Of a stretch of 64,000 nt of DNA, positions 57,783 through 57,861 are shown one piece after another (the stretch's first letter is position 1; every line of letters begins with the position of its first letter). The position numbers and the translations under genes are program-made. The DNA lies in sequence record MN655998.1, one strand, 5' to 3'. The stretch is from Escherichia phage E26. Below the pieces are notes generated by a model that searched no databases, was not told where the DNA came from, and saw nothing but the letters and a program-made list of their open reading frames with translations.

Positions 57783-57824
57783 TTTGATACTCCTTAGTAG
57801 TTCGTGTTTCGTTTCGATGGGTGT

Positions 57825-57853
57825 ATTATGCTATACACCCTCTCGTGTGTCAA
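57825..57853 (-). promoter_or_regulatory. early promoter cassette, archetype (TTGACA-N17-CATAAT)
   Basis: Stem GGGTGTAT/ATACACCC; leader CATCGAAACGAAACAC; AGGAGTATCAAA-ATG. Confidence 0.55.
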
Positions 57854-57861
57854 CAACTTTT

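Follow-up and report, generated by a model that had tools for sequence, protein, structure and literature searches.

What is the element that lies upstream of the small gene at the flagged locus, why does it recur before so many other genes on the same strand, and what does it do there? We addressed these questions in the first 64,000 nucleotides of the Escherichia phage E26 record (MN655998.1), referred to here as the window. In the original prediction, at least 20 conserved early-promoter cassettes were described in the window, and their resemblance to the promoter-early stem-loop (PeSL) elements of T4-type phages was noted. Our analysis puts the probability that these repeated elements, which are 70-130 bp long in the window, are PeSL cassettes as published for phi1 and RB49 at roughly 90%.

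The phage is a Krischvirus, i.e., an RB49/phi1-like T4-type coliphage; the window covers its first 64 kb and is about 96-97% identical to phi1. A 4-kb piece of it matches 58 phage records and a 22-kb piece matches 184, and the top matches of both pieces are all Krischvirus genomes (RB49, phi1, JSE, GEC-3S and others) with about 96-97% identity. A BLAST chain against phi1 shows colinearity that begins at base 1 of that record, in rIIA, and extends to about 64.6 kb, with 95-97% identity and a handful of indels; the window and the phi1 record have the same starting base. Nearly all genes of the window are carried by the minus strand.

The PeSL family was defined by Arbiol et al. (2010; PMC2839356), who counted 52 elements in phi1 and 51 in RB49 and distinguished five subclasses by the position of the stem. 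The parts of a PeSL are an AT-rich tract, a sigma-70 promoter that is near-perfect, a G(n)-loop-C(n) stem, and the SD and ATG of the gene downstream, and PeSLs cluster ahead of ORFans in hyperplastic regions. In the same study, PeSL206/205 was found to drive lacZ expression to about 13,000 Miller units, and the stem-loop of PeSL211/210 lowered lacZ expression about as much as rrnB T1. Recombination between PeSLs was proposed to shuffle the flanked genes, and mini-circles were detected. We fetched the phi1 elements for comparison, and the window copies, named here by the position of their -35 box, correspond to the tested phi1 PeSLs position by position in the alignment; they resemble PeSL206/205, 211/210 and 197/194, and c42928 has almost the same sequence as PeSL211/210. 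The window cassettes are also orthologous to cassettes of related Krischvirus genomes. They thus share genus, loci and a near-identical sequence with the tested copies, as well as the architecture (an AT-rich tract that includes the upstream stop codon, TTGACA-N17-TATAAT, a variable G(n)-loop-C(n) stem, SD and ATG) and the placement before ORFans in hyperplastic regions. Nothing essential sets them apart from the phi1/RB49 PeSLs, from which this isolate differs by about 3-4% and a few indels. The colinearity with phi1 and the near-identity to experimentally tested phi1 copies turn the noted resemblance into identity. Because PeSLs were defined in RB49/phi1-type coliphages, the group to which the window belongs, the family was already known; both the element and its interpretation have been published for this genus, and the finding is a rediscovery of a known regulatory and recombination module.

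All 20 -35 boxes listed in the original prediction are present on the minus strand as (G/C)TTGAC(A/G), and each is followed by a 16-17 bp spacer, a -10-like hexamer, an SD and a start codon (20/20). Two more members, at 2827 and 26066, bring the family to 22 copies (Table 1), 16 of which lie within the ORFan-rich region between 33 and 61 kb. The heptamer GTTGACA occurs 28 times, 26 times on the minus strand, compared to 9.0 +/- 3.2 occurrences in shuffled sequences. With at most one mismatch, AGGAGAATCAAA is found 13 times vs 0.67 expected, and with at most three mismatches, CATCGAAACGAAACAC is found 7 times vs 0.95 expected. An nhmmer profile built from the copies matched on the minus strand only, and searching the window with it yielded no further strong members and none on the plus strand; 10216 and 19249 received weak scores and 3196 was not recovered. 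These three belong to the family by virtue of a sigma-70-type promoter with a stem-loop, but the common leader and ribosome-binding region are absent from them.

The multiple alignment that had been suggested as a check was performed with 18 copies, and conservation extends over about 100 columns, far more than a generic RBS would account for. In the -35 box, which has the form (G)TTGACA, TTGAC is invariant and the final A is present in at least 90% of the copies; in the -10 box, of the (C/T)ATAAT type, two positions are invariant. The A/T tract, a discriminator rich in C, the predicted start site with its 'CATC', an A-rich leader and a GGAGAATCAAA-ATG ribosome-binding region are conserved as well. 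The shared leader CATCGAAACGAAACAC was found in its full form in five copies (42928, 46617, 57848, 58807 and 60802) and not in the rest; four more (2827, 34378, 47859 and 52502) carry the short leader form CATCGA(A/C)AAC.

Table 1. Cassettes of the window and the regB gene, in order of position; the slash separates -35 and -10 boxes or the two arms of a stem.
Element	Coordinates	Strand	Promoter and stem-loop	Leader and ribosome-binding region	Gene or remark
c2827	2771..2858	-	GTTGACA/CATAAT; stem GGGGATAT/ATGTCCCC (one U.G pair)	leader ATCGAAAACAAAAGG	absent from earlier list
c3196	3137..3227	-	CTTGACA/TATAAT; stem GGGAGA/TCTCCC spanning -10, then TTTTCTTTT	no common leader	divergent
c9647	9592..9678	-	GTTGACA/AATAAT	leader ATACCAACTA (as in c45445), AGGAGAATCAAT	
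c10216	10157..10247	-	TTGACA/TATTAT, then hairpin GCCTCC/GGAGGC + T6	SD within hairpin; predicted start within its 5' arm	divergent; upstream of modB
c19249	19191..19280	-	TTGACA/TATAAT; stem ATAGGGG/CCCCTAT spans -35 and spacer (z -4.1)	no common leader	divergent; upstream of gene 43
c26066	26014..26097	-	TTGACG/TATACT; stem CGGGGA/TCCCCG in spacer		absent from earlier list
c33232	33164..33263	-	CTTGACG/TATACT; stem GGGGATC/GATCCCC in spacer	AGGAGAATCAAA	
c34378	34324..34422	-	upstream hairpin + T-run; TTGACA/TATAAT	short leader ATCGAAAACAAC, GAGAGG SD	
c36881	36826..36912	-	stem GGGAGTAT/ATACTCCC around -10 TATAAT (z -4.2)	GAGGATTATATT-ATG	
c38116	38059..38147	-	stem GGGAGTA/TACTCCC around -10 TAAGAT	GAGGATTATATT-ATG	goF-like gene
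c39027	38970..39058	-	stem TGGGAGTA/TACTCCCA around -10 TAAAAT	AGGAGAATCAAC	
c42252	42192..42283	-	10-bp stem (one U.G pair) around -10 TATAAT	GAGGAATATATT-ATG	
c42928	42859..42959	-	stem GGGGAT/ATCCCC in spacer; -10 TATACT	long leader, AGGAGAATCAAA-ATG	
c45445	45391..45488	-	upstream terminator (45488-45467); TTGACA/TATAAT	leader ATACCAACTA, AGGAGAATCAAA	
c46617	46548..46648	-	GTTGACA/CATAAT	long leader (CATCGAAACGAGATAC), AGGAGAATCAAA	
c47859	47804..47903	-	upstream terminator (47903-47878); GTTGACA/CATAAT	short leader, AGGAGAATCAAA-ATG	
regB	51685..52107	-			endoribonuclease gene; phi1 and GEC-3S annotation; start mapped to 52107
c52502	52445..52533	-	stem GGGGGTA/TACCCCC around -10 TAATAT	short leader, AGGAGTATTAAA-ATG	
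c57848	57780..57879	-	A-tract, GTTGACA, 17-bp spacer, CATAAT; stem GGGTGTAT/ATACACCC, -10 in 6-nt loop (fold z -3.8); predicted +1 A at 57818	36-nt leader, ATCGAAACGAAACAC..., then AGGAGTATCAAA-ATG	108-aa LPD25-domain protein; flagged copy
c58538	58483..58569	-	stem GGGGAG/CTCCCC in spacer (z -6.0); -10 TACAAT	GGGAGAATCAAA-ATG	
c58807	58735..58866	-	terminator (58866-58845 + T-run) directly upstream of GTTGACA/CATAAT	full leader, CGGAGAATCAAA	61-aa DUF7421 protein
c60351	60294..60382	-	stem GGGGGTA/TACCCCC around -10 TAAGAT	AGGAGAATCAAG-ATG	52-aa ORFan
c60802	60739..60844	-	upstream terminator (60844-60824); GTTGACA/CATAAT	full leader, AGGAGAATCAAA-ATG	

A near-consensus sigma-70 promoter is present in all 22 copies, with at most one mismatch in the -35 box, a spacer of 16-17 bp and at most two mismatches in the -10 box, which always contains A2 and T6. 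The alignment reveals UP-like A/T tracts upstream of -35, and the upstream ORFs end about 10-60 nt from -35. When the start site is placed 7 nt after the -10 box, an A is found at the predicted +1 in every one of 18 copies, for example at 57818, 58777, 60772 and 42898. The proposed function as early promoters is supported by the published lacZ fusions, by 5'-end mapping in RB49 and by the GenBank record of GEC-3S, in which promoters are annotated at 16 orthologous sites, including that of c57848, and terminators at several; at the site orthologous to c34378, both a terminator and a promoter are annotated. Nolan et al. (2006) predicted an RB49 early-promoter consensus, including a preference for C at -3 to -1, and stated that it agrees with the 5'-end mapping by Desplats et al. 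(2002). Our literature search found no Krischvirus transcriptome or start-site data. Among orthologues in six genomes, differences amount to 0.2% in the -35 hexamer and 0.2% in the -10 hexamer, compared to 7.4% in the spacer, 5.1% in the discriminator, 3.4% in the leader, 3.4% in the ribosome-binding region and 2.2-4.3% in the flanking coding sequence. Judged by these differences, the promoter hexamers are under strong selection. Host sigma-70 RNA polymerase would initiate right after infection at the A located 7 nt past -10. For related copies, this step has been demonstrated in published work, and for the copies of the window we infer it by homology.

The stem-loops are placed less uniformly than the original prediction had assumed by locating an inverted repeat in the spacer. 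The stem is indeed inside the spacer in four copies (26066, 33232, 42928 and 58538), but it overlaps the -10 box in eight (2827, 36881, 38116, 39027, 42252, 52502, 57848 and 60351), where the hexamer occupies a 6-nt loop and the discriminator provides the 3' arm. Five copies (34378, 45445, 47859, 58807 and 60802) contain instead a canonical hairpin and T-run terminator directly upstream of -35. The stem of 19249 lies across the -35 box, and 3196 and 10216 have a downstream stem with a T-run. Five PeSL-type position classes are therefore seen, i.e., in the spacer, over -10, over -35, upstream and downstream. In 9647, folding of the upstream region detected no stem-loop, and in 46617 the stem is degenerate in this genome and pairs better in other Krischvirus genomes. 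Of the 20 upstream regions folded, 13-14 did better than shuffled sequences, with z from -1.9 to -6. Swapping the 3' arms between copies reduced pairing from 100% to 67% and 78%, i.e., the complementarity is copy-specific; in this hand-made control the stems were chosen as paired parts, the value of 100% follows from that choice and information comes solely from the contrast with the swapped arms. The MAFFT alignment anchors the copies on the promoter, relative to which the stems occur in two registers, beyond what one structure line can represent. Rfam covariance models gave 0 matches at gathering score in the whole window.

The stems end at or before -1 and are consequently located outside of the cassette's own transcript; in c10216, the predicted start falls within the 5' arm. 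A stem upstream of its own +1 can therefore act only on read-through RNA, or as DNA. A role as DNA would imply cruciforms or hairpins that modulate promoter melting, or targets of a structure- or sequence-specific recombination protein. This would be in line with the absence of the stem from the cassette's own transcript, with the -10 hexamer in the 6-nt loop of eight copies and with the conserved G(n)/C(n) arms, and a DNA-binding protein that targets GGGG...CCCC has been speculated about (Arbiol et al. 2010; PMC2839356). Nevertheless, we consider a DNA-level role improbable, as the arms, with 6-10 bp, are rather short to extrude as cruciforms and the five position classes suit an RNA signal better than a device that depends on promoter geometry. 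In addition, each of the three imperfect stem pairs observed is a U.G pair when read as sense RNA and would become A.C if the opposite strand were read, and in a reporter assay one stem functioned as a terminator (Arbiol et al. 2010; PMC2839356).

As signals in RNA, the stems differ in what follows them. A U-tract directly after the hairpin is found only in the five copies with an upstream terminator and in 3196 and 10216, and not after the other stems: those overlapping -10 are followed by AUCGAAAC, and those inside the spacer by UAUA(A/C)U. The designation 'canonical terminator' was considered for all stems and rejected, as most have no U-tract, and for the same reason we refer to them as attenuator or 3'-end hairpins. 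Canonical intrinsic termination would not be expected for the class that overlaps -10. The sole stem tested by Arbiol et al. (2010; PMC2839356) is spacer-internal and followed by UUAUAAU. The stem-loop, or the upstream terminator, would attenuate or terminate transcription from the upstream gene, and the stem-loop would probably leave a protected 3' end and in this way insulate each cassette. Terminator activity has been shown for one phi1 stem, and we infer it for all stem positions.

Downstream of the promoter, the leaders are either 23-25 nt or 31-40 nt long from the predicted +1 to the start codon, consist of 49% A and have less structure than dinucleotide-shuffled sequences (mean z +0.64, p=0.012). 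They usually end in AGGAGAATCAAA-ATG. GGAG serves as SD in 16 of the 22 cassette-led genes, whereas among the remaining 107 genes it does so in 27 (Fisher p=4e-5). In T4, strong RegB/S1 sites have the consensus GG*AGRAYARAA (Uzan and Miller 2010; PMC3014915), and GGAGAATCAAA, which is present in nine cassettes, matches this consensus at 10 of 11 positions; position 8 of the RegB/S1-like region is C instead of A in every copy. Taken together, matches to GGAGRAYARAA are only weakly enriched (16 vs 10.3 expected). The regB gene lies in the window, and its own SD is GGATAATAAAA, a GGAU variant. For RB49, cleavage of regB's own SD, GGAUAAUAAAA, has been reported, and RB49 RegB is divergent from T4 RegB (Uzan and Miller 2010; PMC3014915). 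The cassettes thus resemble T4 RegB/S1 sites (PMC3014915) by a GGAG SD in an early intergenic region, a subsequent A-rich tract and the presence of regB; unlike the T4 sites, they coexist with a divergent RB49-type RegB and are candidates by sequence match. Across the six genomes, the leader and ribosome-binding region exhibit no extra conservation (3.4%) over flanking coding DNA, and the expectation that conservation among orthologues would single out the leader was rejected, since a divergence of 3.4% corresponds to background.

Shared post-transcriptional control through the conserved leader, as put forward in the original prediction, is plausible on sequence grounds, and RegB-mediated shut-off of the cargo, i.e., the genes behind the cassettes, would be a reasonable reading of the conserved ribosome-binding region. 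The A-rich, unstructured leader together with the GGAGAAUCAAA-AUG region would give efficient translation. The latter region is also a likely RegB/S1 cleavage site, at which cleavage would silence the cargo mRNAs after the early period, with the regB product as the proposed trans-acting factor for GGAG ribosome-binding regions. RegB is not mentioned in either of the two PeSL papers (Arbiol et al. 2010, PMC2839356; Comeau et al. 2014, PMC4122927), and the former does not discuss the RegB/S1 consensus match or stems wholly upstream of +1. Tentatively, and with the odds rather against it, a PeSL may be seen as a three-function 'pulse' module, in which the built-in RegB/S1 site GGAGAAUCAAA would inactivate every cargo mRNA minutes after infection, while the stem-loop, present in read-through RNA only, would form the 3' end of the upstream message and protect it after the RegB cut.

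The cassettes are compact, intergenic and located ahead of early genes, for the most part small ORFans. The genes behind the cassettes mostly encode proteins without a Pfam match or members of DUF families. In an all-against-all comparison, 30 cassette-led proteins were unrelated save two pairs, namely w38116/w39027, which are weakly similar, and the paralogues ORF191/ORF205 of phi1. Because the cargo proteins are unrelated, the similarity between copies stops at the ATG. If the likeness of the cassettes had arisen because whole genes were duplicated along with their promoters, in tandem or at dispersed sites, adjacent cassettes such as c36881, c38116 and c39027 and the two related pairs would be accounted for; with only two such pairs among 30 proteins and the likeness otherwise ending at the start codon, whole-gene duplication is extremely improbable and was rejected as the source.

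The cassettes themselves are nearly identical over 70-100 bp between copies at different loci, and because of this they would offer patches of homology to the T4-type recombination system, through which promoter cores and flanked genes could be swapped, deleted or inserted. For this there is support in the literature and one new example here. To follow such events, the window was compared with phi1, GEC-3S, JSE, JK32, G2248 and LF73P4. About 14 distinct indel or replacement events were found against these six genomes, and the breakpoint of one of them falls within a cassette. G2248 and LF73P4 lack gene 38 and, in place of this gene and of the c45445 terminator and promoter core, have another PeSL core at the locus; the junction reads TTGACA, CGGGGAGAAATCCCCG, TATAAT, and homology resumes in the leader. 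The spacer stem-loop of this core, CGGGGAGAAATCCCCG, is identical to that of c26066 over 16 nt. Another event, a decayed 2.1-kb gene, abuts the terminator of c47859, and about 12 others in this small sample are away from cassettes. Four event sites carry annotated homing-endonuclease genes in related genomes, and a fifth event site, in the window at 5035-5778, encodes an Endonuclease_7 protein. In this small sample, the events are no closer to cassettes than chance would give. The sample supports the existence of PeSL-mediated exchange, not its dominance.

An alternative view would hold that the copies are ordinary early promoters that are alike through shared constraint, i.e., the need for a strong sigma-70 promoter and a strong RBS, and do not represent a mobile or recombining module. 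The hexamers are indeed the only strongly constrained positions among orthologues, and most indels in the six genome comparisons are away from cassettes. However, copies at distant loci are nearly identical at positions without a known role for polymerase or ribosome. The spacer of c58807, for example, is identical at 16 of 17 positions to that of phi1 PeSL197/194, which is located about 60 kb away before an unrelated gene, the G2248 core at gene 38 contains the 16 nt of the c26066 spacer stem-loop, and the leader ATACCAACTAAGGAGAATCA is common to c9647 and c45445. Differences between orthologues are moreover clustered and switch a copy to a paralogue variant, as in the c52502 spacer and the c46617 leader, which is the pattern that gene conversion between cassettes would give. 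Together with the published mini-circles (Arbiol et al. 2010; PMC2839356), these observations, above all the near-identity of distant loci at unconstrained positions, make pure convergence through shared constraint, without exchange, unlikely. PeSL cassettes that exchange sequence with each other remain the preferred interpretation, with less confidence in the single steps of the mechanism than in the identity of the cassettes.

PeSL-like elements have also been described for T4/PST and KVP40/nt-1, along with T4 early promoters (Comeau et al. 2014; PMC4122927). They similarly combine an early promoter, a stem-loop and an SD, and occur in hyperplastic regions, where they are tied to ORF exchange. 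The T4/PST elements use TTTACW...TAYWAT and those of nt-1 TTGYVH...TAWWAT, with other stems upstream of the promoter (PMC4122927); in contrast to both, the window cassettes have near-perfect sigma-70 hexamers and G(n)/C(n) stems that often overlap the promoter. Integron cassettes and lambdoid 'morons' are comparable in that small accessory genes are exchanged as units with their own expression signals, an analogy made by Arbiol et al. (2010; PMC2839356). Unlike integrons, PeSLs have no integrase or attC-type system, and exchange is proposed to occur via general homologous recombination on the repeated cassette.

The occurrence of PeSLs in another Krischvirus adds nothing fundamental to what is known about these elements. 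Most indels found here are homing-endonuclease insertions and not PeSL exchanges, and with about 58 Krischvirus genomes publicly available, the weight of PeSL-mediated shuffling has become measurable. The match to the RegB/S1 consensus would connect PeSL cassettes with the shut-off of early mRNAs, in a way that lends itself to direct testing. If the 'pulse' module exists, any ORFan behind a cassette would gain strong, immediate and self-limiting expression. PeSLs explain the early expression of many accessory ORFans in T4-type phages, and they are among the few concrete candidates for the 'linkers' that modular theories of phage evolution require.

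A second motif for translation initiation, (T)GAGGATTATATT-ATG, recurs at many genes of the window, and most of these genes are not located directly downstream of a promoter-early stem-loop (PeSL) cassette. The two exceptions are the genes starting at 36828 and 38061, which bear the motif downstream of c36881 and c38116, respectively (cassettes are named after the position of their -35 box). The motif is similar to the AU-rich ...AUUAUG operators of RegA-repressed genes in T4, and regA is present in the window as the orthologue of phi1 18732-19094. This resemblance, together with the presence of regA, points to a putative second post-transcriptional regulon. 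A perfect AGGAGAATCAAA-ATG ribosome-binding region precedes an internal gene, the orthologue of phi1 ORF003; no recognisable promoter was found upstream of it, and this region may be a cassette remnant.

Upstream of modB, at the divergent cassette c10216, a GCCTCC...GGAGGC hairpin with a T6 stretch includes the modB Shine-Dalgarno sequence, and the predicted transcription start falls within the 5' arm of this hairpin. Read-through RNA would either terminate at the hairpin or have its Shine-Dalgarno sequence sequestered; in promoter-initiated RNA, the latter would be free. The same logic applies to the leader of T4 gene e. On the antisense strand, the hairpins of c52502 and c60351 run into a T-rich tail and are called terminator-like; they may also stop transcripts that come from this direction.

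The stem of c46617 is broken by two substitutions in the window genome and better paired, with one bulge, in its orthologues in six other genomes. Between the window and these genomes, the c46617 leader alternates between GAGATAC and GAAAC variants, both of which are known from paralogous cassettes. Upstream of the c47859 terminator, a non-coding stretch is all that the window retains of a decayed ORF of 2.1 kb. This ORF is intact in JK32 and G2248, and phi1 has kept more of it (ORF084.1 region) than the window. Compared with phi1, the window has an insertion of 806 bp adjoining the topoisomerase gene (60+39). The protein encoded there is 247 aa long, contains an Endonuclease_7 (HNH-type) domain and is probably a homing endonuclease.

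Gene 38, encoding the tail-fibre adhesin, is missing from its locus at c45445 in the phages G2248 and LF73P4. Their junction contains a different PeSL promoter core, with a 16-nt spacer stem-loop identical to that of c26066 in the window. Therefore, a host-range gene occupies a cassette-bounded variable site.

Coordinates of the leader, cassette and locus features
Feature	Genome	Position	Strand
(T)GAGGATTATATT-ATG start codons	window	2109 (rIIA), 15127, 30024, 36828, 38061, 41067, 43764, 50626, 56847, 62267 (gene 1)	minus
AGGAGAATCAAA-ATG region	window	2587-2598	minus
Insertion beside topoisomerase gene	window	5035-5778	minus
modB leader hairpin region	window	10157-10247	minus
Gene 38 locus	window	45417-46329	
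Gene 38 locus	L006	5475-5513	
Gene 38 locus	L007	7653-7691	
c46617 stem region	window	46581-46654	minus
Decayed ORF	window	47912-48127	
c52502 antisense hairpin	window	52470-52495	plus
c60351 antisense hairpin	window	60320-60343	plus
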